Shown here: positions 11,253 to 33,957 of the stretch, in pieces
How the letters are laid out: each line of letters opens with the position of its first letter
Position numbering within the stretch: the stretch's first letter is position 1
From: an uncultured Clostridia bacterium
GTDB taxonomy: Bacteria > Bacillota > DTU014
Length of the DNA: 64,000 bases
Reading direction: 5' to 3'
Assembly (NCBI GenBank): GCA_900016865.1
Contig: FIZI01000016.1
Coordinates: forward strand, 45,304-109,303
Notes under the pieces: model-generated
The model's input: only the letters and a program-made list of their open reading frames with translations
Database searches by the model: none
Told to the model about the DNA's origin: nothing
Position numbers and translations under genes: made by a program

Positions 11253-11293
11253 CGAACACCGGAGCTAGTGAACCCGATAGAGCTCTAGTGGCG

Positions 11294-13802: not shown

Positions 13803-14018
13803 TCTGTGAGAGCCATCTAAGCGACGACTGCGTCCATTGCTTAATATCGCCGTTCCTGTATGAGTTTATACTGTAAAACGTCCGGCTGTGGAACACTGCC
13901 GAATATCCGGGAGAGAGCTGGAGATAATAAGCAGTAAGGCGCGTTCGAATGCAGAGATGCATTCATGTCTTGACGCGTCAATCTCTTGACCCGGCAGAAC
14001 GCGCTTGGGAGCAACACG

Positions 14019-15677
14019 ATGACGCTAGGGTATTTCTGTTTGGTCCTTCACAGTCATATCCCTTACACAAAGAAAGCTGGCAAATGGCCATTCGGAGAGG
14101 AATGGCTCTACGAAGCAATGGCCGAGACATACATACCTATCCTAGATATACTTGCAGGACTCAACGAGTCGGCCCGGGTGTGTGTAAGCATATCTCCAGT
14201 GCTCATGGAGCAGCTGAGAGATCCGTACATGAATGAGGGTTTCGAGGAATACCTAGGGCAACGTCTGGCTGCAGCATCTGCGGATGTGTCGAGGTTTGCA
14301 GCGACCTCAGACTACCGACTCAAGAAGCTGGCAGAGGGATATGTGGACTACTACGAAAAGGTCAAAGACGCGTATATCCGGGTATGGAATCGCGATCTCT
14401 TGGGGGCCTTTAAGAGTCTCCAGGACCAGGGACGCATTGAAGTCATTACGAGTGCAGCAACTCATGCATATCTGCCGCTCATGGGCGACGAGGCTTCCGT
14501 CAGGCTGCAGCTGCTTGTTGGACGCGAGACCTACAAGGCTTACATGGGCAGAGAGCCTGCAGGCATTTGGCTACCTGAATGCGGTTACAGGCCCAGAGGC
14601 GGAAAAGACCCGCATGGCGGGACTCTGCGGCCTGGAATCGAGCAACACCTAAAGGAGTTGGGAATACACTACTTCCTTGTCGATTCCCATGCGATAGAGG
14701 GCGGTGCGCCGCTTGGCATCTATAGTTCTAGGTTGGCTCACTCATTCCAACATGCCGATGCGGAGAACTCCGCTCATACAGGAAGGAGCACCTTTCGCCC
14801 ATACTACGTAGAGGATTCAGGTGTAGCTGTATTTGGCCGCGACCGGAGGACCGGCTCGCAGGTGTGGTCCAGCGAATGGGGGTATCCCGGAGACGGGAGC
14901 TATCGAGAGTTCCACAAGAGAGACGAGAAGTCAGGTTTTAGATATTGGCGCGTGACAAACAGATTGACCGGGCTTGACAGAAAGGAGCTGTACGACCCGG
15001 ATCAAGCAATGGCCCGCGTCTTTGAGCAATCCACTCACTTTGTCTGCCTGGTGAGAAACCTTCTATCAAGCTTTGCCGCTTCTTCCAAGACTCCCGGTAT
15101 CCTCGTTGCTCCCTATGATATTGAGTTCTTTGGGCACTGGTGGCATGAAGGCCCGCAGTGGCTGCGCCAGGTGTTGACCAAGCTCGCTGAGATTCCGGAA
15201 GTAGAAGTGAGCACTCCAAGCGCTTATCTGTCAAAATACCCGCCAACCGAGGCAGTAAGGCTGAGGGAGAGCTCATGGGGGGTAGGTGGCAAGCACTATG
15301 CCTGGATGAACGAAGCGACCGCTTCGTTGTGGCAGGAGTTGTTTGCTGCAGAGTCTCGGCTAGCCTGTGTGATTGAACAGTGTCGAAACTCATCGGCGTT
15401 CGATACACGAATGGCTAGGCTGATAAACCAAGGTATCAGGGAGCTCATGCTTATGCAGAGCAGTGACTGGCCGTTCCTAATCACGACCGGTCAGGCGGCC
15501 GACTACGCCAGGTCGCGCTTTGCAGAACACAAGGACAGACTCGAGAAGGTCTTGACGGCCGCGGAGGCCCTAGCAGGTGGGTGCTGCGATCAGCGAGTAG
15601 ATGAACTAGAGGAGATCGAGCAGATCGACTCCTTGTTTAGCGGCCTGGAACTGTCCAGTCTGGTCAACTGGAGCTAG
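14019..15677 (+). CDS. GH57-family glycoside hydrolase (second copy, divergent from the DUF4912-GH57 operon)
   Basis: N-terminus MTLGYFCLVLHSHIPY (GH57 hallmark). The chosen start is the internal ATG with a weak upstream GGGAG, whereas the ORF track starts at 13986. About 553 aa. Confidence 0.85.
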   Translation: MTLGYFCLVLHSHIPYTKKAGKWPFGEEWLYEAMAETYIPILDILAGLNESARVCVSISPVLMEQLRDPYMNEGFEEYLGQRLAAASADVSRFAATSDYRLKKLAEGYVDYYEKVKDAYIRVWNRDLLGAFKSLQDQGRIEVITSAATHAYLPLMGDEASVRLQLLVGRETYKAYMGREPAGIWLPECGYRPRGGKDPHGGTLRPGIEQHLKELGIHYFLVDSHAIEGGAPLGIYSSRLAHSFQHADAENSAHTGRSTFRPYYVEDSGVAVFGRDRRTGSQVWSSEWGYPGDGSYREFHKRDEKSGFRYWRVTNRLTGLDRKELYDPDQAMARVFEQSTHFVCLVRNLLSSFAASSKTPGILVAPYDIEFFGHWWHEGPQWLRQVLTKLAEIPEVEVSTPSAYLSKYPPTEAVRLRESSWGVGGKHYAWMNEATASLWQELFAAESRLACVIEQCRNSSAFDTRMARLINQGIRELMLMQSSDWPFLITTGQAADYARSRFAEHKDRLEKVLTAAEALAGGCCDQRVDELEEIEQIDSLFSGLELSSLVNWS

Positions 15678-15775: not shown

Positions 15776-16633
15776 ATGCGAGTAGTGGTCATCACCGGAC
15801 TGTCTGGAGCAGGCAAGAGCGAGGCGATCAAGTCACTTGAGGATATTGGATATTTTTGCATAGATAACCTTCCTCCGGAACTCATTCGCAAGCTGGCTGA
15901 GCTTTTTTCACAGTCGGATCGCACAGTGAATAGGATAGCCCTGGTGGTTGATGTTCGTGCCGGCGCGTCTCTCTCAGACGCTCTTGCAGACTTAGAGGAA
16001 CTCCGCAGGATAGCGGCTGACTTCACAATCTTGTTTCTCGACGCGTCGGATGAGACATTGCTGAGACGATTTAAGGAGACGAGACGCAGGCATCCTTTGG
16101 GTTCTGAGGGCGGTATTCTCGAGGGTATTCGGCGTGAGCGGCAGCTCCTGGCGGCCATTAAGTCAGCCTCGGACCAAGTGATAGATACATCGGGTATTAC
16201 ATCTCGCCAGCTGCGCAACAGACTTGTCGAGCTTTTCAGCGAGGACGCCAGATTTGATACGTTCTCCATTACAGTCGTCTCCTTTGGGTTTAAGTATGGC
16301 ATACCTCTGGACGCAGATCTCGTGTTTGATTGTAGGTTTTTGCCAAACCCATATTGGGTTGAATCGCTTAAACCAATGCAAGGGACAGACCCTGAAGTGC
16401 GGGAATACGTTCTGAAGTGGCCTGTAACAAAAGAGTACATCGAACGTCTCAAAGACCTGTTGGAGTTTCTCGTTCCGAACTACATCGAAGAGGGTAGGAG
16501 CCACCTGATCATCGGAATCGGATGTACGGGAGGGCGTCACAGGTCTGTAGTCCTTGCTGAGGAGATAGTATCTCACTTGACACACCTTGGGTACTCGGCA
16601 GGCTTGGAGCACAGGGACATGAGCGCTAACTGA
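15776..16633 (+). CDS. rapZ: RNase adapter protein RapZ (YvcJ)
   Basis: A P-loop N-terminus MRVVVITGLSGAGKS, followed by CIDNLPPEL and a conserved C-terminal domain. It sits immediately upstream of yvcK, as in Firmicutes. Confidence 0.9.
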   Translation: MRVVVITGLSGAGKSEAIKSLEDIGYFCIDNLPPELIRKLAELFSQSDRTVNRIALVVDVRAGASLSDALADLEELRRIAADFTILFLDASDETLLRRFKETRRRHPLGSEGGILEGIRRERQLLAAIKSASDQVIDTSGITSRQLRNRLVELFSEDARFDTFSITVVSFGFKYGIPLDADLVFDCRFLPNPYWVESLKPMQGTDPEVREYVLKWPVTKEYIERLKDLLEFLVPNYIEEGRSHLIIGIGCTGGRHRSVVLAEEIVSHLTHLGYSAGLEHRDMSAN

Positions 16634-16652
16634 TTGAGAGGGATCACGTCAA

Positions 16653-18008
16653 TTGGCATTCCTTAAGTGGCTATATCCGGGGATGGGTTTGAAACGGTGG
16701 TTCTTCTTGGCGGTCCTTGGAGGCCTTATGGCCGGGCTCGGACTTGACTGCCTGTTCGGTGAAAGCATCTTGTCATTTGCTGGCCGAGCGCTAGACCGAG
16801 TCGGTGTCCAGTTTACCACGGACACGGAGGTCAGGTGTTCAGTGGCGGCAGTGCTGTTGGTCACGGGGATTCTTTGCATCGCGTTTGGCCTGGCGATGGC
16901 TATCAAACGCGTTGTCTTGGCTGTGAGGCCTGGATATGGGGGCCGCATTGCAGATGCAGTGCTCAATGACAGCACACTCAGGAGAGGGCCTTCGGTAGTC
17001 GTGATTGGAGGCGGGACCGGACTCTCTACCTTACTGCGGGGCCTTAAGCAATACACCAGCAACATTACAGCTATCGTCACTGTCACTGACGACGGAGGAA
17101 GCTCGGGCCGCCTGAGAAATGAACTCGGAATCCTTCCTCCCGGCGACATACGCAATTGCCTCGTTGCACTTGCCGACACGGAGCCGCTGATGGAGCAGCT
17201 CTTGCAGTATCGGTTTAGGTGCGGTTCGGGACTGAACGGCCACAGTTTTGGCAACTTGTTGATCGCTGCATTGACTGAGCTTTCAGGCGATTTTGAGTTG
17301 GCAGTGAGGGAGTCTAGCAAGGTCTTGGCGGTCCGGGGCCGAGTGCTCCCCTCTACACTGAGTGATGTAACTATTTGCGCGGAGCTGATCGACGGATCCA
17401 TAGTTCGGGGCGAAACGACCCTTTCAGCACAAGACAAGCCGATACGCCGAGTCTTCATCGAGCCGCAGGACTGCACTCCTCTGGCTGATGCAGTAGAGGC
17501 TATAGGAGAGGCCGATGCAATCGTTCTGGGGCCCGGCAGCTTGTACACTAGTGTGATTCCCAATCTGTTGGTCAGGCAACTGACCGCAGAGATCGCCGCA
17601 TCTCGAGCTCCTAAGATCTACGTGTGCAACGTAATGACTCAAAAGGGTGAAACAGACAACTACGGCGTCTTCGATCATGTCAAGGCTATTCTAGACCATT
17701 CGGTTGACGGCCTATTAGACTATTGCGTAGTCAACGACGGCCGAGTCTCTGAGCCCCTCCTCAAGCGGTACAGCGAGATGTCTCAGCACGTAGTCAGAGA
17801 TGATTCGAAGCGGGTCGCCGCACTTGGAATCCGTGTCGTGAAGGCAAACGTGGTCAGTGAGACTGAAGTAGTGCGGCATGATCCCATAAAGCTGGCGTCT
17901 GTCCTTATGCAGCTCATTGCAGAGATCAGAGAGGCGCAAGAGCCGAAGCCCACTGTTCGCAGGTTCGTTTGCCGCATGTTCAGGCGGAGAGAGTACATCC
18001 GGTCGTAG
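16653..18008 (+). CDS. yvcK: YvcK/CofD-like gluconeogenesis factor with unusual N-terminal two-TM extension
   Basis: The core VVVIGGGTGLSTLLRGLK ... GPGSLYTSVIPNLLV matches UPF0052/YvcK. The first roughly 100 aa contain two hydrophobic helices not found in canonical 320-aa YvcK. 451 aa in total. Confidence 0.8.
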   Translation: MAFLKWLYPGMGLKRWFFLAVLGGLMAGLGLDCLFGESILSFAGRALDRVGVQFTTDTEVRCSVAAVLLVTGILCIAFGLAMAIKRVVLAVRPGYGGRIADAVLNDSTLRRGPSVVVIGGGTGLSTLLRGLKQYTSNITAIVTVTDDGGSSGRLRNELGILPPGDIRNCLVALADTEPLMEQLLQYRFRCGSGLNGHSFGNLLIAALTELSGDFELAVRESSKVLAVRGRVLPSTLSDVTICAELIDGSIVRGETTLSAQDKPIRRVFIEPQDCTPLADAVEAIGEADAIVLGPGSLYTSVIPNLLVRQLTAEIAASRAPKIYVCNVMTQKGETDNYGVFDHVKAILDHSVDGLLDYCVVNDGRVSEPLLKRYSEMSQHVVRDDSKRVAALGIRVVKANVVSETEVVRHDPIKLASVLMQLIAEIREAQEPKPTVRRFVCRMFRRREYIRS

Positions 18009-18044
18009 GGTCTCGATTGGAACGTAAGTCCGTTCGTGCCTATC

Positions 18045-18620
18045 CTATCCAAAGACTAACGTGCACACAATGATTGATGCCAAGAAACCGACTATATCGG
18101 CTATCAGGCCTGTCCAGACAGCATGTCTTACTCTGCGTATCCCGACTGCGCCGAAGTACACGGTGACAATGTAAAAGGTCGTGTCTGCACTTCCTTGGAT
18201 GGTGGACGCCATCCGTCCGATCATTGAATCAGGCCCATGGGTGGACAGCAGGTCTGCGAGAATGCCCAGCGAGCCGCTGCCTGACAATGGCCGCACTATG
18301 AGAAGCGGCACCACTTCGACGGGCACTCCTATGACATTCAGGACCGGAGACAGGACTGAGGCAGCCATATCGAGTGCGCCCGAAGCCCGCAGGATCCCAA
18401 GAGCCAGGAACATCGCGAGTAGAAACGGCAGGATCCTCAAGGCCACCGAAACGCCGTCCTTTGCTCCTTTTACGAACTCTTCGTAGACCGGCACCCTTTT
18501 GTAAGCACCCCAGACGAGAATTGCGATGATCAACAGTGGTACAGCAAGCGCCGAGGCGCTTTGGATGGTGCCGACCAGTCTCTCAAGCAGTACTGACTTT
18601 GCCAGCATTGGCACAGTCAC
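18045..18620 (-). CDS. spmB: Spore maturation protein B-like (nucleoside-recognition Gate-domain membrane protein)
   Basis: A 191-aa polytopic membrane protein, paired with and overlapping the spmA-like gene (4-nt overlap). The pair resembles spmA/spmB architecture. Confidence 0.7.
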   Translation of the reverse strand: MTVPMLAKSVLLERLVGTIQSASALAVPLLIIAILVWGAYKRVPVYEEFVKGAKDGVSVALRILPFLLAMFLALGILRASGALDMAASVLSPVLNVIGVPVEVVPLLIVRPLSGSGSLGILADLLSTHGPDSMIGRMASTIQGSADTTFYIVTVYFGAVGIRRVRHAVWTGLIADIVGFLASIIVCTLVFG

Positions 18621-19225
18621 CTCCCTCTGTTTGAGCGAGACTTGGCAGAGGCGCGACGAAAGAGGCTGTCAGCAATGAGAGCAGCAGCAGTCGAGCACGT
18701 GGTAGCTATGAGTGTAGTGATGAGGATGTCAGCTGGGTTTGCAGATCCCGTCAGGCCCCTCATGGCAATAACTGTTGTTGGGACTACTGTTATGCTCGAG
18801 GTTGTGATAGCCAGCAACGTACACATAGCATCGCTGGCTGTGTCTTTTCTCGGGTTGAGCTTTTGGAGCTCTTCTATAGCTTTGATGCCAAGCGGGGTAG
18901 ATGCATTGCCGAGCCCAAGTATGTTGGAGCTCATGGCAAGCGATATGTACGAGAGCGCTGGGTGCCTCCGAGGTATACTCGGAAACAGGAACCTTACGAT
19001 CGGAGATATGGCCTTGGCTATGGACTCAGTAAGCCCCGACGCAGAAGCAACTTGCATCAACCCCGACCAGAGCATCAGCAGGCCGGTCAGTCCAATCACG
19101 AACTCAACAGCAGACTTGCAGGACTGCACTATCTCACTAGAGACACTGTCAAGGGTCCCGTTTACCGCAGCTATTAAGATCCCCGATCCGACAAGCAGCA
19201 GCCAGACTATGTTGATCACACGCAA
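18617..19225 (-). CDS. spmA: Spore maturation protein A-like (nucleoside-recognition Gate-domain membrane protein)
   Basis: A 202-aa membrane protein upstream of and overlapping spmB. It is divergent from the DeoR gene. Confidence 0.7.
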   Translation of the reverse strand: MRVINIVWLLLVGSGILIAAVNGTLDSVSSEIVQSCKSAVEFVIGLTGLLMLWSGLMQVASASGLTESIAKAISPIVRFLFPSIPRRHPALSYISLAMSSNILGLGNASTPLGIKAIEELQKLNPRKDTASDAMCTLLAITTSSITVVPTTVIAMRGLTGSANPADILITTLIATTCSTAAALIADSLFRRASAKSRSNRGR

Positions 19226-19387
19226 TCCCTCCTCGGATATTCATGTGTATGCTCGGGCAAGTGTAGTGATGTTGCCGGCTGCTGGGCACCTGATCGGAAG
19301 TCCGCAGTTCATAGAAGGATAATGTTGATTTATGTGGAATAACAACTAACGCAAGGTCGATAACCACAAGAACTCACACTTGTCCAC

Positions 19388-20209
19388 ATGACAACAACGC
19401 GTTGTAAGGGAGATGCATTAGTGCTTGCAGCCGAGCGGCGTCGCCGTATTATACAGATATTAGAAAAAGAGCACAGTGTCCGGGTATCCGACCTTTGCGC
19501 TCGGTTTGATGTTGCAGACGAGACAATCCGCAGAGACCTGAAGCAACTCGAGGCAGAGGGACTCGTTGAGAGGACACACGGTGGCGCAGTACTGAGTGAC
19601 CGCGTCAGAGTGGCTTACCCTTACCACATGCGCAAGGTCCAGGCTCCAATCGAGAAACAGCGAGTCGGTAGAGCTGCCGCGCAACTGGTCGAAGACGGGT
19701 CTACGTTGATACTGGACAACGGCACGACCACACTTGAGGTAGCCAGGTGCTTGAGAGGCAAACGCAGATTGACCGTAGTGACCACGTCGCCTCTGATCGC
19801 TCTGGAGATGACCGGATATCCTGATGCGACTGTCATCTTGACAGGAGGGATCCTGGACCCGGACAGCCAGTCGCTGATAGGGCCTGACGCTGAGGAGTCT
19901 TTGCGCAAGTTGAGTGTAGATATAGCCTTCATTGGGACTAGCGGAGTGAGCGTTGAGCGGGGGTTCACCGCGTCCAACGTGTACGAAGCGCAGATCAAGT
20001 CCATTATGGTCAACGCGGCATCCAGACCCTATGTGGTCGCGGACGGCTCCAAGGTTGGCCAGAGTTCGCTGGTGTGCTTTTCGCCGCTGGGGGAAGTGTT
20101 TGGGCTGGTCACTGATTCGACAGCCAAACCGCACGAGCTCGACAAGCTGCGCGAATCGGGCTTGGATGTCGTGATAGCGGAAGAAATCTCGGGGGTGGTG
20201 CAATCGTGA
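19388..20209 (+). CDS. DeoR-family transcriptional regulator (HTH + DeoR C-terminal sugar-phosphate sensor)
   Basis: An N-terminal HTH (VRVSDLCARFDVADETIRRDLKQLE) and a C-terminal DeoR-C domain (273 aa). The gene lies first in the operon with the dehydrogenase, isomerase-aldolase and kinase genes. Confidence 0.85.
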   Translation: MTTTRCKGDALVLAAERRRRIIQILEKEHSVRVSDLCARFDVADETIRRDLKQLEAEGLVERTHGGAVLSDRVRVAYPYHMRKVQAPIEKQRVGRAAAQLVEDGSTLILDNGTTTLEVARCLRGKRRLTVVTTSPLIALEMTGYPDATVILTGGILDPDSQSLIGPDAEESLRKLSVDIAFIGTSGVSVERGFTASNVYEAQIKSIMVNAASRPYVVADGSKVGQSSLVCFSPLGEVFGLVTDSTAKPHELDKLRESGLDVVIAEEISGVVQS

Positions 20210-21180
20210 AACCAGTCGTGTTTGTCACTCGGAGGATCCCCGAATCAGGGATCGACATGCTTCGTGAGACCTGTGAGGTGGTAGTGAACGGGGAGGACCG
20301 TGTCCTATCTAAGGAAGAGCTGATCGAAGGGGTAAAGGGGAAGGATGCGCTGCTGTGCCTGCTTACGGACAAAATTGACGCAGAGGTTATGGACGCCGGC
20401 AAGAGCCTCAAGGTCATCGCCAACTACGCTGTCGGCTTTGACAACATCGATGTCGAGGCTGCAACAAGCCGCAAGATCCCCGTCACCAATACTCCCGGCG
20501 TGCTGACTGAGACTACGGCTGATCTCGCTTGGGCCCTTCTCATGTCTGCGGCTAGACGGATCGTTGAGGGCGATAGGTTCACTCGAGAAGGCAAGTACAA
20601 GGGTTGGTCTCCCATGCTCTTGCTGGGCCGTGACGTATATGGAAAGACTCTTGGCATAGTCGGCTTTGGCAGGATTGGCGAGGCGATGGCCAGGAGAGCA
20701 AATGGGTTCTCTATGCAGGTCATCTACTATGACGAGAATAGGCGTTCGCCGGAGGAAGAGGAACGGCTTGGCGTCAGATATGTGTCCTTTCCTGAGCTCC
20801 TGGCACAGTCGGATTTCATATCAGTTCATGTGCCTTTGATGGAGAAGACTTACCACATGTTCGGCCCTGCTGAATTTGCAGCAATGAAGAAAACAGCCAT
20901 ACTGATCAATACGGCTCGCGGGCCGGTGATCGATGAGGCTGCGCTGGTAGAAGCGTTGAGAAAGGGCGATATCGCCGGTGCCGGGCTCGACGTCTACGAA
21001 GATGAGCCGCTGTTGAAACCTGGATTGGCTGATCTCGACAACGTTGTCTTGGCGCCTCACATAGGAAGCGCATCGGTTGAGACGAGGACCAAGATGGCAA
21101 CTATGGCAGCACAGAACGTGCTGGCGGTACTCAGAGGAGAAGTCCCGCCCAACATACTCAACCGAGAGGTATTCGATTAG
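20206..21180 (+). CDS. D-isomer-specific 2-hydroxyacid dehydrogenase (glyoxylate/hydroxypyruvate reductase-like)
   Basis: NAD-binding GIVGFGRIGEAMARR, catalytic-region motifs (NTARG, HIGSAS), 324 aa, and a GTG start overlapping the deoR stop. Confidence 0.85.
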   Translation: MKPVVFVTRRIPESGIDMLRETCEVVVNGEDRVLSKEELIEGVKGKDALLCLLTDKIDAEVMDAGKSLKVIANYAVGFDNIDVEAATSRKIPVTNTPGVLTETTADLAWALLMSAARRIVEGDRFTREGKYKGWSPMLLLGRDVYGKTLGIVGFGRIGEAMARRANGFSMQVIYYDENRRSPEEEERLGVRYVSFPELLAQSDFISVHVPLMEKTYHMFGPAEFAAMKKTAILINTARGPVIDEAALVEALRKGDIAGAGLDVYEDEPLLKPGLADLDNVVLAPHIGSASVETRTKMATMAAQNVLAVLRGEVPPNILNREVFD

Positions 21181-21221
21181 TCAGAGCGCTATCAATCTGA
21201 TTCTCACTGGAGGGATCTAAG

Positions 21222-23249
21222 ATGGCCCTAGAAAAAAACGTGATAAGCATTGTGCACTCCATGGCGTACCCCGGCCCGGGAAAGACAAACGCGGTAGCCA
21301 GGGGTGAAGCACCTGAGACTTACTTAATCACTACAGTTAAGAAGATAGCGGATGACCCTTACTTCGGTGGTATAGAGGTCACTCGAATCAAAAACAGAGA
21401 CCACCGCAAGAAAGTTGCGAAGATTTTGAAAGACGCCAACATGGTGGTCACCTACAGCGCCCAACCCGTGCAGTTGATCAACGAAGACGCCCTGATAGAC
21501 GAAGGGGATATCTCGTCTATCGATGAGACTAGCCGGATCAATGCAGTCGCACGGATCAAGGAATGCATTGAGGAGGCTTTTGAGCTAGGGGCTTCCAACT
21601 TCGCATTGGTCAGCGGAAAGGACCCCGGCACCTCCAACGGGCTTAAGGCGCGAAGGGAGGCAATGCGTTCCCTCGTCAGGTCGCTCGATGAGATTTGTCA
21701 GTATGCGAGCGAGAGAGCAGCCGAAATCGGAGTAGGCGAGCTGAATATCTTCCTAGAGATGTTCGATCGCCTAGACGAACCCGGCTGCAAGAACATGCTC
21801 ATCGGGCCGACAACCGACGCTATCGAGGTCATCCAAGAGCTGAGGAATGTCTATCGGCGCAACAATCTGTGGCTCATGTATGACCTGAGCCATATGCTGC
21901 TCATGAAGGATTCATCGTTTGACGGCGAGGACCCGTTTGTCCTGAGAAAGCTCGCTCCGTACCTTGGTCATATCCACATTGGCACTTGTGTGCTCGATAA
22001 AGAGGACCCGCTCTACGGAGACACACACCCTCGTCTTGACTACCCGAACTCGGCAGTCACCAAGGAGCTGTTGGCTGAATTTGTCAAGGAGCTTCAGGCC
22101 ATACGCTATTCTAAGGGCATAGGCTTTGAAATCGCCCCTTACGGCGATGACCAGAGCGACGCGATTGTTCGAACAGCCAAGAGTTACCTCGATGAAGCGA
22201 GGGACAGATACGATGTCAACTACGCTCTTGGCAGGTACTTCTTTCGACCCAGGACGTTTTTCCCGGAGAACCTGTTTGCAGCGATAACAGATGCCAGGGT
22301 ACAGCGGCCGGAGATCATAACAGAAGAGGCCGCTGCACGAAAACGCAGGGACAAGTTGACCAAGAACGGACGTCTCATGATCCTTGCCTGCGACCATCCA
22401 GCAAGATATGTGACAAATGTTGGTGACGACCCGATTGGCATGGGCGATCGGATGGACTACCTTGGCAGAATTACCCGAGTGTTGATTCATGACGAAGTGG
22501 ATGGGGTTATGGGGACTCCCGACATCGTAGAAGACCTGCTCATAGTCAGCGCCATGTTGAGGGAGAAGACCGGGAAAGGCCTTCTCGACGACAAGGTGAT
22601 TCTCGGGTGTATGAACAGAGCGGGCTTAGCAGGCGCGAGGTATGAAATGGACGACCGGATGACTGCGTTCACTGCAGAGAGCATGCACAGATTGAGGCTG
22701 GATGGAGCAAAGATCATGTTTAGACTTGATCTCAACGACAAGTACTCCTTGCGGACTCTCACATACTGTGCAAAGGCTATAACCGAGTGCAACGCGCTTG
22801 GACTGCCAACATTCCTTGAGCCCCTGCCTGTCCAAAAGACCGACAGAGGCTATGAGGTCAAGCTCAACTACATCGACATGATACGTGTAATCGGAGTGGC
22901 GTCGGCTCTAGGGGACTCATCTCAGAACCTCTGGCTCAAAATACCATATGTAGACAAGTATGATCAGGTGGCTAAAGCCACGTCGCTTCCAATACTCATG
23001 CTGGGAGGCGCTTCAAAGGGCACTCCTATAGACACAATCGAGAACTTCGAAAGAGGCATGGGAGCAGGCACCAATGTCCGGGGTGCACTTGTCGGGCGCA
23101 ATGTCCTCTATCCGGGTGTAGACGACCCGATGGCTGTTGCAGGGGCTATCAGCAAAGTCATACACTCTGAATACTCAACGCTGGCAGCCATCAAGTACCT
23201 GGCAAGCATCAGGGGTACTGATATGGATGCCTTGGCGCCGATATGCTGA
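21222..23249 (+). CDS. Fusion protein: N-terminal xylose-isomerase-like TIM-barrel sugar(-phosphate) isomerase/epimerase + C-terminal DhnA/LacD/DeoC-type class I aldolase (Cgl0159-like)
   Basis: The N-terminal half (about 340 aa) carries AP-endo2/xylose-isomerase-like TIM motifs (FLEMFDRLDEP ... LGHIHIGTCVLD). The C-terminal half (about 335 aa) has LMILACDH (the LDH motif of DhnA-type aldolases), a candidate Schiff-base Lys region (KIMFRLDL) and the phosphate-binding LGGASKG. 675 aa. Confidence 0.7.
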   Translation: MALEKNVISIVHSMAYPGPGKTNAVARGEAPETYLITTVKKIADDPYFGGIEVTRIKNRDHRKKVAKILKDANMVVTYSAQPVQLINEDALIDEGDISSIDETSRINAVARIKECIEEAFELGASNFALVSGKDPGTSNGLKARREAMRSLVRSLDEICQYASERAAEIGVGELNIFLEMFDRLDEPGCKNMLIGPTTDAIEVIQELRNVYRRNNLWLMYDLSHMLLMKDSSFDGEDPFVLRKLAPYLGHIHIGTCVLDKEDPLYGDTHPRLDYPNSAVTKELLAEFVKELQAIRYSKGIGFEIAPYGDDQSDAIVRTAKSYLDEARDRYDVNYALGRYFFRPRTFFPENLFAAITDARVQRPEIITEEAAARKRRDKLTKNGRLMILACDHPARYVTNVGDDPIGMGDRMDYLGRITRVLIHDEVDGVMGTPDIVEDLLIVSAMLREKTGKGLLDDKVILGCMNRAGLAGARYEMDDRMTAFTAESMHRLRLDGAKIMFRLDLNDKYSLRTLTYCAKAITECNALGLPTFLEPLPVQKTDRGYEVKLNYIDMIRVIGVASALGDSSQNLWLKIPYVDKYDQVAKATSLPILMLGGASKGTPIDTIENFERGMGAGTNVRGALVGRNVLYPGVDDPMAVAGAISKVIHSEYSTLAAIKYLASIRGTDMDALAPIC

Positions 23250-23280
23250 TGACGGCCGGATTGGCGAGTAGGACTGTGAG

Positions 23281-24813
23281 GTGAGTTCGTTGGACCTGAT
23301 TTTGACCTATGACATCGGGACCACAGCCTGCAAGAGCGTGTTGTTTAGCGTCGACGGGACAGTTGTTGCAATGGCCGAGCAGGAGTTTCCGACCAGGCAT
23401 CCCGAGCCGATGTGGGCGGAACAAGACCCTGATGACTGGTGGCAGGCAGTTGTGTCCACCACCCGGTCACTCATGGAAGGCAGAGAGAACGCCAGGATCT
23501 TGAGCATAGGCCTCTCCAGCCAGAGGGAGACGATAGTCCCTGTTGACAAACAGGGAAACAAGCTCTGCGACGCGATACTGTGGATGGACAGACGTACCGC
23601 CAAGGAAGCCGAGGACCTTGCATCGTACTTCGGCAGGGAAAACCTGCACAGTGTCACGGGAATGATCCCTGATGCGACGTTTAGTGCGACTAAATTGATG
23701 TGGCTTAAGCGTCACATGCCCGAGGTGGTCGACGCTGCGCACTGCTTCCTCCAGCCAAAGGAGTATGTCTGCTTGAAGTTGACAGGGGCGTTCACAACCG
23801 ACTACTCCCTTGCTTCGCGGACAATGATGCTCGACGTGAGGAAGCTGTCTTGGTGTGACGATGTATTCGCTGCGGTCGGGATTTCAAAGGAGAAAATGCC
23901 TCGGATATACTACTCCGATGAAGTGGTCGGCACGGTAACCACGGAGGCTGCAGCACTGCTGGGCATCCCCTCTGGAATACCCGTGGTGGCCGGGGGAGGC
24001 GACCGCCAGTGCGAGGCGGTAGGTGCCGGGATCTTTGGAGACAGGGCAATGGAGTCTACAGGGACGACTTCAAACATCTCCTGTGCTTCTGACCACGTCA
24101 TTGACAACCTGGATATCCGCGTTGTATGTTCGGTGCATGCTCTCCGTGGGCATTGGCTGATTGAACAAGGGCTTACCACCAGCGGCTCCATACTGAGGTG
24201 GTTTCGTGACACCTTTTGCCAAGAAGAGCAGGCCGACGCAGCCGCTCGCGGCATCAGCGCTTATGCAATCATCGATGAAATGGTAGCCAACGCGCAGCCT
24301 GGATCACACAAGCTCTTGATGCTGCCGTTCTTTATGGGCGCCAAGGCAACACGGTGGAATCCCGCGGCACGTGGAGCGTTCCTGGGAGTGACGCTTGGAC
24401 ATGGCAAGGCTGAGTTTGCTCGGGCAATCATGGAAGGCGTAGCCTTTGAACTTCGAGCCTGTCTTGATATACTCAAGGGGATCGGGCTTGAACCGTCACA
24501 GATTGTCTCTATGGGCGGAGGCTCCCGCGGAGATGTCTGGAATCAGATAAGGGCGGATGTCACCGGCAGGCCTGTCAGTGTGCCGAGGGTGACTGACGCG
24601 GCGTCTCTTGGAGCCATGATCTTGGCAGCCAAGGGCGTTGGAGTCATCAGTGATGTTGCGGAAGCCTCGGTGACGCTAAATCCACCGCAGAAACGCTATA
24701 GCCCTACCGCAAGTTCGCAGGCAGTGTATGATCAACTCTACCCGATCTACGATGACTTCTACGCTGCAGTCGAGGGCTTGTTTGACCGGTTGGATGCGGT
24801 CAAGGCCCAGTGA
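23281..24813 (+). CDS. FGGY-family carbohydrate kinase (xylulokinase/glycerol-kinase-like)
   Basis: N-terminus LTYDIGTTACKSV (FGGY N-domain), a middle GGGDRQCEAVGAG region and C-terminal GGGSR (FGGY C-domain). 510 aa. Confidence 0.85.
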   Translation: MSSLDLILTYDIGTTACKSVLFSVDGTVVAMAEQEFPTRHPEPMWAEQDPDDWWQAVVSTTRSLMEGRENARILSIGLSSQRETIVPVDKQGNKLCDAILWMDRRTAKEAEDLASYFGRENLHSVTGMIPDATFSATKLMWLKRHMPEVVDAAHCFLQPKEYVCLKLTGAFTTDYSLASRTMMLDVRKLSWCDDVFAAVGISKEKMPRIYYSDEVVGTVTTEAAALLGIPSGIPVVAGGGDRQCEAVGAGIFGDRAMESTGTTSNISCASDHVIDNLDIRVVCSVHALRGHWLIEQGLTTSGSILRWFRDTFCQEEQADAAARGISAYAIIDEMVANAQPGSHKLLMLPFFMGAKATRWNPAARGAFLGVTLGHGKAEFARAIMEGVAFELRACLDILKGIGLEPSQIVSMGGGSRGDVWNQIRADVTGRPVSVPRVTDAASLGAMILAAKGVGVISDVAEASVTLNPPQKRYSPTASSQAVYDQLYPIYDDFYAAVEGLFDRLDAVKAQ

Positions 24814-24832
24814 GACCTAGAGGGCGAGTGCA

Positions 24833-25822
24833 GTGACCTTTTCTGAAAGGGTAAAGAATGAACTAGTCAGGCGCAAGAAGGACGAATGCCCCGAGTGCGC
24901 GTATGCCGAACTCGGGGGATTCGTCCATACTGCTGGCTCTATTTCAATCCTAGGACGCCAAAGGCTGAGCGTTACCGTAGAGGTAGACAGGCCTGCGATA
25001 GCTCGTCGCGTCTTCACCCTGGTGAAGAGGCTCTTCGGCGTTCATTCTGTCATCGCAGTCAGACGCTCCTCTCGCTTGGGAAGGCATAATACGTACGTAG
25101 TGAACATCCCCCCGTCCGCACAAGTGACAGAAGTCGTTCGGCGGCTTCACGTACTTGACGACGACAGCAGCCTGACTCGAGGCATTCCGTGGAGACTTGT
25201 GGGAGATAAATGCTGCCAGCGTGCCTATCTTCGCGGTGCGTTTGTCGTTCGCGGCTATGTGAACGATCCTGTAAAGGGCTACCACTTGGAGGTGACAAGC
25301 AACAGCTTTGATCACGCTTCGGACCTGGTGAAGCTGACAACCAAGTGGGATATCAAGGCCAAGACGACCGAGCACAAGCAAAGGCACATATTGTACGTGA
25401 AGGGCGCAGACGATGTTTCCCGATTTCTGCAGGTGATAGGCGCAGATATGGCTCTCTTGGAATTTGAGAACGTTCGAGCCATGAAGGATGTGCGCAATCA
25501 GGTCAATAGGGAAGTCAACTGTGAGACGGCAAACGTGAACAAGACCGTGGAGGCTGCGGCTCGGCAGATAGACGACATTCGCCTCATAGACAGAGAGATC
25601 GGAATAAGGTCGCTCAAGAAGAGCTTGCAGGACGTTGCTGTGTTGCGCCTTGAGATGCCTTCGGCTACTATGGAGGAGCTTGGCCAGGCACTGACACCCG
25701 CAGTGTCCAAGTCAACGGTGAGCTATAGATTCAAGAGAATAGCTGCGATTGCGGACGAGATACGCAAACAACAACGAGGGCATCCGCTTGTCTCTGATCG
25801 CAGGACTGCCAAGCCCCGTTAG
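24833..25822 (+). CDS. whiA: Sporulation/cell-division transcription regulator WhiA
   Basis: A GTG start gives the N-terminus TFSERVKNELVRRKKDECPECAYAELGGFVHTAGS, characteristic of WhiA (LAGLIDADG-like plus C-terminal HTH). 329 aa. Confidence 0.9.
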   Translation: MTFSERVKNELVRRKKDECPECAYAELGGFVHTAGSISILGRQRLSVTVEVDRPAIARRVFTLVKRLFGVHSVIAVRRSSRLGRHNTYVVNIPPSAQVTEVVRRLHVLDDDSSLTRGIPWRLVGDKCCQRAYLRGAFVVRGYVNDPVKGYHLEVTSNSFDHASDLVKLTTKWDIKAKTTEHKQRHILYVKGADDVSRFLQVIGADMALLEFENVRAMKDVRNQVNREVNCETANVNKTVEAAARQIDDIRLIDREIGIRSLKKSLQDVAVLRLEMPSATMEELGQALTPAVSKSTVSYRFKRIAAIADEIRKQQRGHPLVSDRRTAKPR

Positions 25823-27807: not shown

Positions 27808-28128
27808 ATGGAGAGAGAACAGCACCCGGTAGTCCGGGCAATCATTGCCGAATACCGATTTCTGCTCAGATACGCCGAGCGGCTCGTGTCCGGCCTTGTC
27901 CACTGCGACGCAGAGGACGTGGTTCAGGATGTGATGGTCCGGCTGCTTTCCTTGCCTGTCAACGGTATACCGATCGAGCGTTTGGCTTCGTACTTGCGAG
28001 CCTCTGTAAGGAACAGGATGAGCAGCCGCAGGAACAGGATGTCGATGATACGAAGACAGCCGAGTTCGAGCGATATTGGAGGGAAGAAGGCCGCGAGGCC
28101 TACGAGCGCTGGCTGGAGCGTGTGCTAG
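27808..28128 (+). pseudogene. Truncated ECF sigma-factor fragment (region 2 only)
   Basis: AEDVVQDVMVRLL and the following basic stretch match sigma-70 region 2 of ECF sigmas. The ORF ends after 106 aa with no region 4, and contains a 12-nt direct repeat (aggaacaggatg x2, encoding the repeated RNRMS). Confidence 0.35.
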
Positions 28129-28258: not shown

Positions 28259-28349
28259 GGAGGGGTGTCCGAGTGGTTTAAGGAGCTGGTCTTGAAAACC
28301 AGTGACTCACGTAAGTGGGCCGTGGGTTCGAATCCCACCCCCTCCGCCA
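28259..28349 (+). tRNA. tRNA-Ser (anticodon TGA)
   Basis: A manual cloverleaf gives acceptor ggagggg/cccctcc, a 3-bp D stem, anticodon stem ctggt/accag with loop cuUGAaa, a long variable arm, T-loop ttcgaat and an encoded CCA. Confidence 0.85.
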
Positions 28350-28388
28350 CGGTCAATATCTGGTGAGTCTGTCTATAGGTTCGATTGC

Positions 28389-28479
28389 GGAGAGATACCC
28401 AAGTGGTCGAAGGGGTCGGTTTGCTAAACCGATAGTAGGAGCAATCCTAGCGAGGGTTCAAATCCCTCTCTCTCCGCCA
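28389..28479 (+). tRNA. tRNA-Ser (anticodon GCT)
   Basis: Acceptor ggagaga/tctctcc, anticodon stem tcggt/accga with loop uuGCUaa, a long variable arm, T-loop ttcaaat and CCA. Confidence 0.85.
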
Positions 28480-28660
28480 TTTCATTCCGAGTGTTAGGGA
28501 CCGGTGAGAAGCCGGTCGTTTTTTGTGTACCCGATGATTTTGGCTACGGGAGATTGTGCCTAGAGATCCCGTGGTGGGAAATACCAGCCCTTCTGAAGGA
28601 ACCTGCATCCGAGTAGTCCGTCTGTACTGAGTGAGAAACAAGTGGCGCAGTTCCTGCTAA

Positions 28661-29290
28661 ATGGGAGGCTTCATTGTGAGAACACTTTTTTGGTTGGTCC
28701 TAGTCTGCTTAATCGTAGCTGGAGTCGTAGTCGGCCAAGATCAGGCCAATCACGACTACGCGGGTTTGGAACTCGATGCGGCTGGCCAGACAGAGTTTGT
28801 GTCTGATCTGAGGATAGATGCGCCGAGCCTCCTTAGTGACGAAGAGCTGGGGAGGGCAGCGGATCAGGCTGCGGTAAGTATGCTCAAGGACCTCTCTGGT
28901 AAGGCCGACAGCGTCGAGGGTAAGGAGATCCGCTATTCGGTAGTAGATACGCACAACGTGCCTCCGCACATATTGAGGGTTGTTGAAGAGACCAAGACGC
29001 ATCCGACAACTATGGTGTTCGAGGGTGATTCAGGAACTCAATATGTGTACATCGCATTGGGCGAGCGAATGACCGGAGGTTACCTGATAAGCGTAGAAAG
29101 CGTCGAACAAGTGGGTGAGAGGGTTATAGTCCGCTACAACGAGATTAGCCCGGGCGAGGACGACATCGTGACTCTGGCGATAACCTATCCGTGGATTGTG
29201 CTAAAGGTTCAGTCCGATTTGCCAATCGATGTGGTCACACCAGATGCAAGCCTTGGTAATGCCTCGAGCGGGGAGGCTCCTCACAATTGA
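28661..29290 (+). CDS. Secreted/membrane-anchored hypothetical protein, possible PrcB_C-like domain
   Basis: A hydrophobic N-terminal anchor precedes a C-terminal region (GGYLISVESVEQVGERVIVRYNEISPGEDDIVTLAITYPWIVLKV) that is reminiscent of protease-complex PrcB C-terminal domains as recalled from memory. No catalytic motifs are present. Confidence 0.4.
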   Translation: MGGFIVRTLFWLVLVCLIVAGVVVGQDQANHDYAGLELDAAGQTEFVSDLRIDAPSLLSDEELGRAADQAAVSMLKDLSGKADSVEGKEIRYSVVDTHNVPPHILRVVEETKTHPTTMVFEGDSGTQYVYIALGERMTGGYLISVESVEQVGERVIVRYNEISPGEDDIVTLAITYPWIVLKVQSDLPIDVVTPDASLGNASSGEAPHN

Positions 29291-29518
29291 GACAGCGCCT
29301 ACTGAGGAGTCGGCGCTGTCTCTGAGGATGCTCCCTAGACTCTGCTACTCGTTCAGAAAATACGGCCTCTTTCGTCCGAAATTTGCACCATCCAACCATA
29401 GGTTTAGTTGAGGTGGAAGAATCAACCGGCGGTTTATACACCGAAGTGGTTTTCGCTTGCACGCAGAGCGTTTCTCTGATATACTGTCTCAGGACAGCGA
29501 TGAGTCAGTCGTCCTGGA

Positions 29519-29547
29519 TTGAGGAGACTGGCATTCATCTCTACAAT
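29519..29547 (+). promoter_or_regulatory. Sigma-A-type promoter for tRNA-Arg(ACG)
   Basis: TTGAGG-N17-TACAAT, ending 5 nt before the tRNA 5' end. Confidence 0.55.
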
Positions 29548-29551
29548 ATAG

Positions 29552-29628
29552 GCGCCCGTAGCTCAGTGGATTAGAGCGTCTGACTACGGATCAGAAGGCC
29601 GCAGGTTCGAGTCCTGCCGGGCGTACCA
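29552..29628 (+). tRNA. tRNA-Arg (anticodon ACG)
   Basis: Acceptor gcgcccg/cgggcgu, D stem gctc/gagc, anticodon stem tctga/tcaga with loop cuACGga, T-loop ttcgagt and CCA. Confidence 0.8.
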
Positions 29629-30252: not shown

Positions 30253-31242
30253 ATGAAAAGGTTGCTGAAAGCGGGAACATTGCTGTTGGTGGCTATTTTG
30301 GTTTTGTCGTGCGGGTCTGGATTAGCAGCTTCAGAAGATCTGATTAGGGTTGGGATTGTGAATCTGCCTCCGGAAGAATCCGGCTACCGTCAGGCCAATG
30401 TGGAAGACATGAACAAGGTCTTCTCCAGGGAAAACGGCTATGACACCAGACAGACCAACACCGCCGATGTCAACGAGCAGATGGCGGCGGCCATGGGGTA
30501 TATTCGCGATGGCGTCGATTATCTTCTGATCTCCGCAGCCCACGCCTCCGGATGGGACGACGTTCTGCTGGCAGCAAGAAGAGCGGGGGTTAGGGTCATC
30601 CTCTTTGACCGGCTGATTGATACGGATCCTTCGAACTATGAGGCCGCACTTGTTTCCGACATGTACTACGAGGGCCAATTGGCAACTGACTGGATTCTAA
30701 ACAACGTGCCGGAACCGCGCAATGTAATCCTGATTCGCGGGCAGATGGGGAGCGCCGCGGAAATCGGACGCAGCGCCCCGGTGCTCAAGGCGGCAGAAGA
30801 AGGTAAGCTCAACATCGTGTGGGATGGCACAGGCGGCGACACTTGGAGCCTTGAGGAAGCTCGTAGAGTAGTCGAGGCTGCGATCGCCGCAGGAAAGGAC
30901 TTCAACGTCATCTATGCCCAGAACGACGGGATGGCGCAAGGTGCTTGTCAGGCTCTCGAGGCAGCCGGGATCAGCTTTGGGAAGGACGGGAAGGTCAAAA
31001 TCATTGGTTTTGACTTTAACCGTTTTGCCCTTAGAAACGTACAGGCCGGTTACTGGAACGCCGATGTGCAGTGTAATCCCCGTATGGCAAGCCAGATTGA
31101 TCAGTGGATCAAGAGTGGTAATATCCCCGAAGGCATCGTTTATCAGGAAGAGATAATCTTGGACACGGACACGATCACCGACGAACATATCGAAAAATAC
31201 GGGATCAACCCCGACCCGGGCAAGGGTGCGATTACACGATAA
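30253..31242 (+). CDS. CUT2-type sugar ABC transporter substrate-binding protein (YtfQ/RbsB-like periplasmic binding protein)
   Basis: A lipoprotein-type signal (LVLSCGSG), a type-I PBP fold pattern, a strong RBS AGGAGGAGG, and first position in a four-gene transporter operon. Confidence 0.8.
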   Translation: MKRLLKAGTLLLVAILVLSCGSGLAASEDLIRVGIVNLPPEESGYRQANVEDMNKVFSRENGYDTRQTNTADVNEQMAAAMGYIRDGVDYLLISAAHASGWDDVLLAARRAGVRVILFDRLIDTDPSNYEAALVSDMYYEGQLATDWILNNVPEPRNVILIRGQMGSAAEIGRSAPVLKAAEEGKLNIVWDGTGGDTWSLEEARRVVEAAIAAGKDFNVIYAQNDGMAQGACQALEAAGISFGKDGKVKIIGFDFNRFALRNVQAGYWNADVQCNPRMASQIDQWIKSGNIPEGIVYQEEIILDTDTITDEHIEKYGINPDPGKGAITR

Positions 31243-33956: not shown

Positions 33957-33957
33957 G

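Follow-up and report, generated by a model that had tools for sequence, protein, structure and literature searches.

Which compound is degraded by a gene module that joins a metal-dependent TIM barrel and a class I aldolase fold in one polypeptide? The question is raised by a stretch of DNA of 64,000 nucleotides (the window) from an uncultured Clostridia bacterium (GenBank assembly GCA_900016865.1, contig FIZI01000016.1, positions 45,304 to 109,303), in which four co-directional, tightly spaced genes encode a DeoR-family regulator, a D-2-hydroxyacid dehydrogenase, a fusion protein and an FGGY-family kinase (Table 1). A preliminary description of this DNA had recognised these open reading frames (ORFs), which were found exactly where it had placed them, and had assigned their domain families, which were confirmed by Pfam; it had proposed a phosphorylative route with kinase, isomerase, aldolase and reductase steps for a neutral ketose or a deoxy ketose. 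The general idea of such a route is retained here, but its substrate is not: the genes that recur beside related aldolases make keto-sugar acids, and a compound of this kind is a likelier substrate than a neutral or deoxy ketose. The cassette is read as DeoR-controlled catabolism of a 2-keto-hexuronate (equivalently, a 5-keto-aldonate), which would be phosphorylated and cleaved into dihydroxyacetone phosphate (DHAP) and a three-carbon acid aldehyde, the latter being isomerised by the TIM barrel and then reduced. As a complete chain, this reading is plausible but tentative. No described pathway matches the module, as had also been concluded earlier.

A conserved module around a fused protein

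The two halves of the fusion protein match the Pfam families AP_endonuc_2 (residues 50-306, 53.4 bits; cutoff 31.1) and Cgl0159 (PF22649; residues 383-638, 248.3 bits; cutoff 27). A collection of 5.8 billion proteins contains 193 homologues, and the best 120 of these are all full-length, possess both Pfam domains, span 645-743 amino acids (aa), and derive from many independent assemblies. An AlphaFold2 model built from 30 diverse homologues is confident in both domains (pLDDT 89.8, pTM 0.86). The more than 120 clusters of full-length homologues, their independent assemblies and the confident two-domain model rule out an assembly artefact or a sequencing-derived merge of two genes, a possibility named in the preliminary description. 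The carriers include Bacillota (Limnochordia, Caldanaerobius fijiensis), many Asgard archaea, among them Lokiarchaeum ossiferum, and one metagenome-assembled genome of Bathyarchaeota; relatives of the fusion or the cassette also lie on many unclassified environmental metagenome contigs.

In total, 106 loci (13 from genomes, 80 from metagenomes and 13 obtained by exact look-up; designated by L numbers) were collected and dereplicated to 45 loci of the fusion type and 54 with a standalone aldolase (99 compared), in which neighbours were scored by dedicated ORF calls with clustering and by tblastn with reference proteins. The order DeoR-dehydrogenase-fusion-FGGY kinase is repeated in an 80%-identical relative (L001/L022); a 55%-identical lineage (L102/L103) has the order IolB-like gene-fusion-DeoR-dehydrogenase-FGGY kinase, and in L104 and L105 the FGGY and fusion genes form a divergent pair. 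FGGY homologues that are 47-81% identical adjoin the fusion gene in each of these loci (L001/L022, L102, L103, L104 and L105), and DeoR homologues (33-67% identity) do so in 9 of the 45 fusion-type loci. The impression given by the 13 genome loci, namely that the module is conserved only in close relatives, was thus overturned by the metagenome scan and the search for the FGGY kinase. In L102 (12025-13833), the DeoR and dehydrogenase genes are each split into two or three short ORFs, both being intact in the sister locus L103; the breaks reflect either sequencing frameshifts or pseudogenisation.

The same functions are also encoded separately. Standalone aldolases of approx. 345 aa are mostly 50-58% identical to the C-terminal half of the window protein (38-39% in two Aeromicrobium homologues). 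A kinase of the phosphofructokinase (PFK) family is found in 32 of the 54 standalone loci, and the kinase beside these aldolases passes the model of the pyrophosphate-dependent (PPi-PFK) subfamily, PRK14072 (496 versus 273). Thirteen of the 54 contain a separate gene resembling the N-terminal half, so that the neighbourhood comparison suggested earlier did reveal the two halves as separate adjacent genes; the proteins, of approx. 305-325 aa, align end to end with the N-terminal half at 26-36% identity. An orthologous dehydrogenase (54-61% identical to the window enzyme) is present in 11 of the 54. Taking fusion-type and standalone loci together, dehydrogenase orthologues beside the aldolase are 54-77% identical; in the split arrangement, neighbouring dehydrogenases with 54-65% identity to the window enzyme are about as conserved as the aldolase itself. 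Gene orders of the kind TIM barrel-dehydrogenase-aldolase-PFK recur in L090, L086, L076, L048, L053/55 and L078, and in Lokiarchaeum the kinase is PfkB. Because the split halves recur together, the core consists of the TIM barrel, a dehydrogenase of the GRHPR type, the Cgl0159-type aldolase and a kinase, the family of the last being interchangeable (FGGY, PPi-PFK type or PfkB). The co-occurrence of the same functions in many unrelated loci bears out the proposal that the four genes belong together, and the module is almost certainly a real functional unit.

The aldolase half and its genomic partners

The C-terminal half is a member of the fold represented by Cgl0159 of Corynebacterium glutamicum (PDB 3FOK; 'Cgl0159 family (beta/alpha)8-fold protein' at NCBI), which it matches with E values of 3.6e-54 (single sequence) and 1e-95 (profile) and onto which the modelled domain superposes by Foldseek with an E value of 4.4e-25, a TMt of 0.87 and 34% identity. 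Conserved residues and fold are shared; Cgl0159 itself stands alone with approx. 300 aa, whereas in the window the domain is joined to a TIM barrel, and a GRHPR-type dehydrogenase and an FGGY kinase are encoded beside it. Both motifs pointed out in the preliminary description, LMILACDH (residues 385-392) and LGGASKG (residues 594-600), are present. Residues D391, H392, R395, K497, E533, K573, G595, G596 and R626 are invariant, even in actinobacterial homologues of 38% identity, and K573 and the D-H pair of ACDH do not vary among 30 fusion and 20 C-terminal-half sequences. Profile alignment pairs K573 (WLKIPY) with the lysine in LsrF 'iiKtyY', taken to be the catalytic Schiff-base Lys203, and ACDH with LsrF 'AFDH'.

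Foldseek also matches the domain to the ADH synthase of M. jannaschii. With the DhnA superfamily (Escherichia coli LsrF thiolase, M. jannaschii ADH synthase MJ0400, archaeal class IA fructose 1,6-bisphosphate (FBP) aldolase), the C-terminal half has in common the (beta/alpha)8 fold, the position of the Schiff-base lysine and the C-terminal phosphate-binding loops; the similarity, however, is remote only (profile E values of 1e-11 to 1e-3), and the substrates of these enzymes are FBP or 6-deoxy-5-ketofructose 1-phosphate, or phosphorylated 3-hydroxy-2,4-pentanedione. The domain scores 40 bits with the ADH synthase model (cutoff 241) and 24.5 bits with the LsrF model NF006081 (cutoff 297). Thus, of the earlier assignment to a DhnA/LacD-type aldolase, the relationship to DhnA stands but that to LacD does not, as the family is Cgl0159 and the matches to DeoC/LacD are faint.

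The genes that recur beside related aldolases indicate what is fed into the module. Scored with NCBIfam models, they include IolG (476 bits, cutoff 355), IolM (526 bits, cutoff 450), IolN (525 bits, cutoff 245), IolO (366 and 399 bits, cutoff 300) and UxaC (603 bits, cutoff 387), while IolB-like neighbours, located beside the fusion (L102/L103) or beside the split module (L060/L076), reach 234-263 bits with TIGR04378 (cutoff 205). At least one such feeder gene lies nearby in 24 of the 54 standalone loci, and IolG, IolM, IolN and IolO genes flank the aldolase module in at least nine related loci. In L090, eight co-directional genes follow the order iolG-iolM-iolN-iolO-TIM barrel-dehydrogenase-aldolase-PFK; in L047, as judged by cluster membership, an iol operon with DeoR, IolO, ATP-binding cassette (ABC) transporter, IolN, IolG and IolM genes is divergent from the fusion gene. 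UxaC and IolB-type cupins convert uronates into the corresponding 2-keto-uronates, and the recurrent upstream partners all converge on 5-keto-aldonates (2-keto-uronates).

Moreover, aldolases of the Cgl0159 family with 38-52% identity to the C-terminal half occupy the IolJ slot of canonical inositol clusters, namely in Aeromicrobium (L012:8976-15250; IolC-aldolase-IolB-IolD-IolA) and in L098 (2806-7391; IolB-IolC-aldolase-IolD), which are without the TIM-barrel and dehydrogenase partners. The family is probably the class I aldolase for 2-deoxy-5-keto-gluconate 6-phosphate (DKGP) of many bacteria. All contexts would be accommodated by an enzyme that splits a 6-phospho-5-keto-aldonate to yield DHAP and a three-carbon acid aldehyde, and that the Cgl0159-family domain acts on such a compound, with release of DHAP, can be proposed with reasonable, if not high, confidence. 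With the 2-deoxy substrate of canonical iol clusters, the other product would be malonate semialdehyde, handled by IolA; with feeders that deliver fully hydroxylated keto-acids, it would be tartronate semialdehyde, and it is in such loci that TIM barrel and dehydrogenase genes occur.

A proposed route for 2-keto-hexuronates

Gene content, domain families, conserved catalytic residues and neighbourhood conservation were observed, whereas every substrate and product of the route is predicted. Candidate substrates are D-tagaturonate, D-fructuronate and isomers of 5-keto-gluconate. The FGGY kinase would phosphorylate the primary hydroxyl beside the keto group, giving a keto-uronate 1-phosphate, which can be regarded as an analogue of FBP in which the distal phosphate is replaced by a carboxylate, or as the 2-hydroxy analogue of DKGP of the inositol pathway. 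Recruitment of PFK-family kinases is plausible because the intermediate would be such an FBP analogue. The Cgl0159-type domain, via a Schiff base at Lys573, would then cleave the phosphate ester into DHAP and tartronate semialdehyde; the fused, metal-dependent TIM barrel would isomerise tartronate semialdehyde to hydroxypyruvate, and the GRHPR-type dehydrogenase would reduce hydroxypyruvate to D-glycerate. In other lineages, the core would be fed by IolG-IolM-IolN-IolO, UxaC or an IolB-like uronate isomerase and would use a PPi-PFK-type or PfkB kinase.

The terminal steps depend on the nature of the dehydrogenase. The enzyme scores 441.7 bits with the GyaR glyoxylate reductase model NF009714, just under the cutoff of 455, and its nearest solved structures are GRHPRs of Pyrococcus (6bii, 5aov, 2dbq; 360-368 bits). 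The Pyrococcus enzymes, including 5aov and that of P. horikoshii, were described as 'unambiguously' hydroxypyruvate reductases (PMC4749974). Of the acceptors considered in the preliminary description, hydroxypyruvate is thus favoured, while glycolaldehyde and lactaldehyde are not, as GRHPR-type enzymes act on 2-oxo acids. Since these enzymes reduce a 2-oxo acid and not a 3-aldehyde, an isomerisation of tartronate semialdehyde to hydroxypyruvate would be needed before reduction. Such a role for the TIM barrel would explain its fusion to the aldolase, because consecutive steps would pass on a reactive aldehyde, as well as its coexistence with true IolO and its co-evolution with the dehydrogenase. 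It would also explain the aminotransferase, transketolase and glycerate kinase neighbours, all of which fit hydroxypyruvate or glycerate; hydroxypyruvate is a substrate of aminotransferases and of transketolase. Transamination of hydroxypyruvate may be an alternative exit, given that aminotransferase genes accompany the fusion more often than any others.

The neighbours concerned are distributed as follows. In 20 of the 45 loci, on contigs of Bacillota and Asgard type, the gene immediately 5' of the fusion encodes an AspAT-like class I/II aminotransferase (L002-L011, L017, L021 and L025, fusion +/- 2 kb; also L029, L030, L032, L037 and L106). A transketolase subunit is among the encoded neighbours in five loci. 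A glycerate kinase (MOFRL/DUF4147), which agrees with the predicted end product, occurs in L053, the most complete Iol-type locus; the route does not explain two further genes of the same region (L053:535-5553), upstream of the dehydrogenase/TIM-barrel pair, for an enolase-superfamily (MR_MLE) protein and a DegT-type aminotransferase. In L059 (7789-10191), L063 (11519-13828) and at the equivalent position of L070, an ORF of approx. 800 aa, which, judged by sequence motifs alone, resembles membrane H+-pyrophosphatases, comes after the series aldolase-PPi-PFK-type kinase-TIM barrel-transketolase N-subunit; the transketolase C-subunit was not found beside this block.

In this form, the module may represent an undescribed phosphorylative keto-uronate pathway with three new activities, a possibility that must be regarded as distinctly uncertain: a keto-uronate 1-kinase, a keto-uronate-1-phosphate aldolase of the Cgl0159 family, and a tartronate-semialdehyde/hydroxypyruvate isomerase of a new AP_endonuc_2 clade.

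Several observations weigh against the route. Cgl0159 (3fok) is a structural-genomics protein of unassigned function, the aldolase role of the family is a prediction, and enzymes of the DhnA fold are not always aldolases, LsrF being a thiolase and ADH synthase a transaldolase. Hydroxypyruvate isomerase (Hyi) is, by sequence and fold, a more distant relative of the N-terminal half than are ketose 3-epimerases and IolO; the half does not match the Hyi models TIGR03234 and NF007444 of NCBIfam at E <= 0.01, and its PDB profile matches at E <= 0.1 include no Hyi-type chain. The kinase nearly reaches the xylulokinase cutoff, and its phosphorylation site may be the distal end of a neutral ketose. The IolB-like neighbours pass the model of 5-deoxy-glucuronate isomerase, which would point to a deoxy substrate (2-deoxy-5-keto-gluconate (DKG), leading to malonate semialdehyde). 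The window ORFs scanned or compared include neither a uronate isomerase nor an iol gene, some ten ORFs beyond 50 kb being compared only by BLAST with neighbours from related loci. Finally, about half of the fusion loci (Limnochordia, Asgard) are without a nearby kinase and lie among housekeeping genes, which hints at a different, possibly constitutive role of the fusion there.

The TIM-barrel half

Both the PF01261 score and the fold place the N-terminal half among the xylose-isomerase-like TIM barrels. Its nearest profile matches in the PDB are ketose 3-epimerases and TM0416/IolO, with E values of 2e-10 to 7e-8 (7e-8 for TM0416/IolO), and Foldseek aligns the modelled domain with D-psicose, D-tagatose and L-ribulose 3-epimerases, YcjR and UlaE (approx. 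1e-11, TMt 0.70-0.75). E179, D182, D221, H224, H252, D267, H269 and E303 are present, mostly conserved and common to the separately encoded homologues; in homologue alignments, made without residue-level superposition, D182 is invariant and D221, H252 and H269 are conserved in at least 90%, while E179 is substituted in a few and a divergent subgroup lacks D221 and E303. With ketose 3-epimerases and Hyi/OtnI, the domain shares the TIM barrel, predicted to be metal-dependent, and has mostly conserved candidate residues of the E/D/H/E type; unlike them, it is only 16-18% identical to any characterised member, has an N-terminal extension and inserts, and makes up a separate clade with the standalone homologues. 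The fusion scores 17.1 bits with the IolO model NF041099 (cutoff 300), and the N-terminal half alone does not match it. Hyi is a member of the AP_endonuc_2 superfamily, and the hydroxypyruvate isomerase role proposed for the domain means that it would work like Hyi, as gene context suggests, and not that it belongs with it. In three loci with divergent fusions (L045:8001-9020, L046:2132-3151 and L094:8001-9020), the N-terminal half is approx. 30% identical and the D221/H224 and E303 positions are lost, whereas the aldolase half is normal; judging from these residues, the N-terminal domain may be catalytically dead in this subgroup.

The same keto-uronate kinase and aldolase could also operate with the TIM barrel as a 3-epimerase that sets the C3 configuration for the aldolase. 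Such an enzyme would act on the keto-uronate or its 1-phosphate, and tartronate semialdehyde would reach the dehydrogenase through spontaneous tautomerisation or another enzyme. The proximity of the domain in profile and fold to D-tagatose/D-psicose 3-epimerases, L-ribulose 3-epimerase, UlaE and TM0416/IolO speaks for this role, as does the presence of both glutamate positions typical of two-base epimerases (E179 and E303). However, the loci with bona fide IolO (L048, L047 and L090) still have a gene like the N-terminal half. A simple equivalence of the TIM barrel with IolO is thereby rejected, and because both genes are found together, the N-terminal-half-like protein has another job than IolO. 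Fusions, moreover, usually join consecutive steps, and the kinase would intervene between epimerase and aldolase unless the phosphate ester were the substrate of the epimerase; the tight co-evolution with a dehydrogenase of the hydroxypyruvate-reductase type would also be left unexplained. Epimerisation is considered the less likely role, and the isomerisation of tartronate semialdehyde is retained as the proposed step.

Relation to inositol catabolism

The fusion had not been recognised earlier from the inositol pathway; inositol catabolism is nevertheless the closest known context, with the aldolase family in the IolJ position. The IolC/IolJ step resembles the one proposed here in that the CH2OH beside the keto group of a 5-keto-aldonate is phosphorylated and retro-aldol cleavage yields DHAP and a three-carbon acid aldehyde. 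Bacillus subtilis uses a class II (metal) aldolase, IolJ, together with a PfkB-type kinase, IolC. The module differs in having a class I aldolase-type domain and an FGGY kinase, with no IolA, IolD or IolE detected nearby, and its TIM barrel and hydroxypyruvate-reductase-type dehydrogenase suit the 2-hydroxylated product tartronate semialdehyde.

One alternative would make the module a modified form of the lower branch in canonical degradation of myo-inositol, with the kinase acting on 2-deoxy-5-keto-D-gluconate, the aldolase half cleaving DKGP into DHAP and malonate semialdehyde, and an IolE/IolH-like TIM barrel. The Cgl0159-family genes beside IolC, IolB and IolD (Aeromicrobium, L098) and the TIGR04378-passing IolB-like genes described above agree with this idea. 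Against it, no IolD, IolE, IolA or IolC was detected in the approx. 8 kb around the aldolase, either in the window or in loci with TIM barrel and dehydrogenase, as judged by similarity to reference proteins, model scoring of IolD, IolA and IolC having been confined to L012 and L098; likewise, IolD, IolE, IolB, IolA and a PfkB-type IolC are absent among the window ORFs scanned or compared. Malonate semialdehyde, moreover, is not a substrate of a 2-hydroxyacid dehydrogenase, the N-terminal half reaches only 17 bits with IolO and is not matched by IolE, and the IolM/IolN/IolO and UxaC partners indicate fully hydroxylated keto-acids. This branch is accordingly improbable.

A second point of contact is the IolG/IolM/IolN/IolO route of Thermotoga, whose genes would act as feeders in related loci and whose IolO (TM0416) is distantly related to the TIM-barrel half. 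D-Tagaturonate is presumed to be degraded in Thermotoga by way of UxaB/UxaA/KdgK/KdgA. In the module loci, by contrast, the kinase, class I aldolase, TIM barrel and dehydrogenase come next; iol genes are not present among the window ORFs scanned or compared. The intermediates of the Thermotoga inositol pathway are cited in PMC5931981.

The kinase and further alternatives

Pfam assigns gene 4 to the FGGY family. Its score with the XylB model TIGR01312 (377.5 bits) is marginally below the cutoff of 380.25, its top PDB match is the E. coli xylulokinase, and it reaches 251.8 bits with the LsrK model NF008187 (cutoff 528). Gene 1 is a DeoR-family member (HTH_DeoR 66 bits, DeoRC 167 bits) that falls short of the NCBIfam equivalog cutoffs, the top score being that for GlpR (219 versus 300); likewise, no curated functional model of NCBIfam is reached by either half of the fusion, the kinase or the dehydrogenase.

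The near-xylulokinase score, together with the likeness of the TIM barrel to ketose 3-epimerases, is in keeping with the substrate favoured in the preliminary description, a neutral ketose or deoxy ketose whose 1-phosphate, isomerised or epimerised by the TIM barrel, would be cleaved into DHAP and glycolaldehyde or lactaldehyde, the aldehyde being reduced by the dehydrogenase. GRHPR-type dehydrogenases, however, use 2-oxo acids and not these aldehydes, all recurrent upstream partners make sugar acids, and in iol clusters the aldolase family is tied to an acidic substrate; a neutral substrate is thus hardly likely.

In a route resembling the sulfo-Embden-Meyerhof-Parnas pathway, the aldolase would cleave 6-deoxy-6-sulfofructose-1-phosphate, likewise an analogue of FBP whose tail is anionic, and sulfolactate, sulfopyruvate and cysteate would be metabolised by the dehydrogenase, the aminotransferase and the ComB phosphatase. 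Limnochordia encode a ComB-type 2-phosphosulfolactate phosphatase, together with a cyclophilin-like protein, 3' of the fusion, beside tsaD and groES/EL. The phosphatase flanks the fusion in 13 of the 45 loci (Limnochordia-type), and with the AspAT-like aminotransferase (20 of 45) it forms the basis of this interpretation. No sulfoquinovosidase, sulfoquinovose isomerase or sulfite exporter was seen among the scanned clusters common to at least three loci, most low-frequency neighbours being unannotated; the window is without ComB, and the IolM/IolN/IolO, UxaC and IolB-like partners would be unexplained. Sulfo-sugar degradation is therefore very unlikely.

Equally remote is a plain class I FBP aldolase acting with a PPi-PFK in glycolysis or gluconeogenesis, or an Lsr-like processing of autoinducer-2 (phosphorylated 4,5-dihydroxy-2,3-pentanedione), for although the PRK14072-passing kinase beside standalone aldolases suits the former, and the combination of FGGY kinase, DhnA-fold enzyme and nearby CUT2 ABC system recalls lsrK/lsrF/lsrACDB, a class II FBP aldolase is encoded three genes away from the Caldanaerobius fusion, the LsrK and LsrF scores are far too low (252 versus 528 and 24.5 versus 297), no LsrG-like gene lies in the module, and neither proposal explains the co-evolving TIM barrel and dehydrogenase or the iol and uronate partners.

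Genomic setting of the cassette

The DeoR and dehydrogenase ORFs share 4 nt, the next gaps within the module are 41 nt and then 31 nt, and 19 nt separate the kinase gene from whiA. The DeoR gene may start at GTG 19421 instead of ATG 19388, as in the gene call of L014. A sequence scan revealed no terminator- or promoter-like sites beyond chance in the module, including between its genes, and Rfam gave no riboswitch, its matches being tRNAs only. Together with a Gate-domain gene and an ORF without annotation, the module lies between yvcK/CofD and whiA and thereby splits the rapZ-yvcK-whiA trio, which is usually contiguous in Bacillota. The same split is found in the 80%-identical relative L001, and the position of the cassette looks like an old insertion into a housekeeping cluster.

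Table 1. Features of the module and its surroundings in the window
Feature	Positions	Strand	Details
Gene 1, DeoR-family transcriptional regulator (probable module repressor)	19388-20209	+	273 aa; HTH_DeoR + DeoRC
Gene 2, D-2-hydroxyacid dehydrogenase, GRHPR/GyaR type	20206-21180	+	324 aa; 2-Hacid_dh + 2-Hacid_dh_C
Gene 3, AP_endonuc_2::Cgl0159 fusion	21222-23249	+	675 aa
Gene 3, N-terminal half, divalent-metal TIM barrel, xylose-isomerase-like superfamily, divergent clade	21222-22241	+	PF01261
Gene 3, C-terminal half, class I aldolase fold, predicted Schiff-base Lys573	22242-23249	+	PF22649
Gene 4, FGGY-family carbohydrate kinase, xylulokinase-like clade	23281-24813	+	510 aa; FGGY_N + FGGY_C
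rapZ-yvcK-whiA trio	15776-25822		split by the cassette
yvcK/CofD	16653-18008		
Gate-domain gene	18045-18620	-	
ORF without annotation	18642-19322		226 aa
whiA	24833-25822		
CUT2 ABC system	30253-35028		outside the module
Truncated sigma factor of extracytoplasmic function (ECF) type	27808-28128		106 aa; sigma-70 region 2 alone
tRNA-Ser(TGA), tRNA-Ser(GCT), tRNA-Arg(ACG)	28259-29628		flank the PrcB-C-domain protein gene
PrcB-C-domain protein gene	28661-29290		
Alpha-glucan cluster	8721-15677		annotation via the identical contig L014

The module contains no dedicated transporter, as had been noted, but the link that had been drawn to the CUT2 ABC system downstream is weak: whiA, glyA, a NUDIX gene, a sigma-factor fragment, three tRNAs and prcB intervene, and the CUT2 genes show weak homology only to the ABC genes of the L047 iol operon. 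The system is not retained as the transporter of the module. Upstream, the alpha-glucan cluster encodes an 843-aa NTP_transferase/phosphoglucomutase fusion, a DUF4912 protein and, on opposite strands, two GH57 branching-enzyme-like proteins.

Literature and implications

In the searchable literature, no paper contains 'Cgl0159', and 'cg0198' is mentioned only as a conserved hypothetical protein; neither a kinase for tagaturonate, fructuronate or 5-ketogluconate nor the phosphates of these compounds were found there, nor an aldolase route to tartronate semialdehyde and DHAP. The titles and abstracts of the uronate papers retrieved do not mention a phosphorylative uronate route. The published L-glucose pathway was considered as a match and rejected, as it runs via the classical altronate/2-keto-3-deoxygluconate route instead. 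Cleavage of a keto-sugar acid by kinase and aldolase belongs to a known class of chemistry; the widely conserved cassette most likely represents a route for it that is undescribed in the searchable literature.

If the proposed route is correct, it would provide a function for the Cgl0159 family, whose structure has been solved since 2009 and which is named by fold only, and the missing 'IolJ' in many canonical iol clusters would be a class I enzyme belonging to it. Beside the known isomerase, oxidative and reductive routes, hexuronates and inositol-derived keto-acids would have a fourth fate, an Embden-Meyerhof-Parnas-like split into DHAP and a three-carbon hydroxy-acid. Inositol degradation of the Thermotoga type and hexuronate isomerases would thereby be linked directly to DHAP and hydroxypyruvate, and further to glycerate or serine, which would account for the downstream genes in many Thermotoga-type iol clusters without UxaB/UxaA. 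Annotations as xylulokinase, PPi-PFK or glyoxylate reductase in these clusters would be misleading, and metabolic reconstruction of anaerobic-digester Bacillota and Asgard archaea, in which the fusion is common, would be improved.

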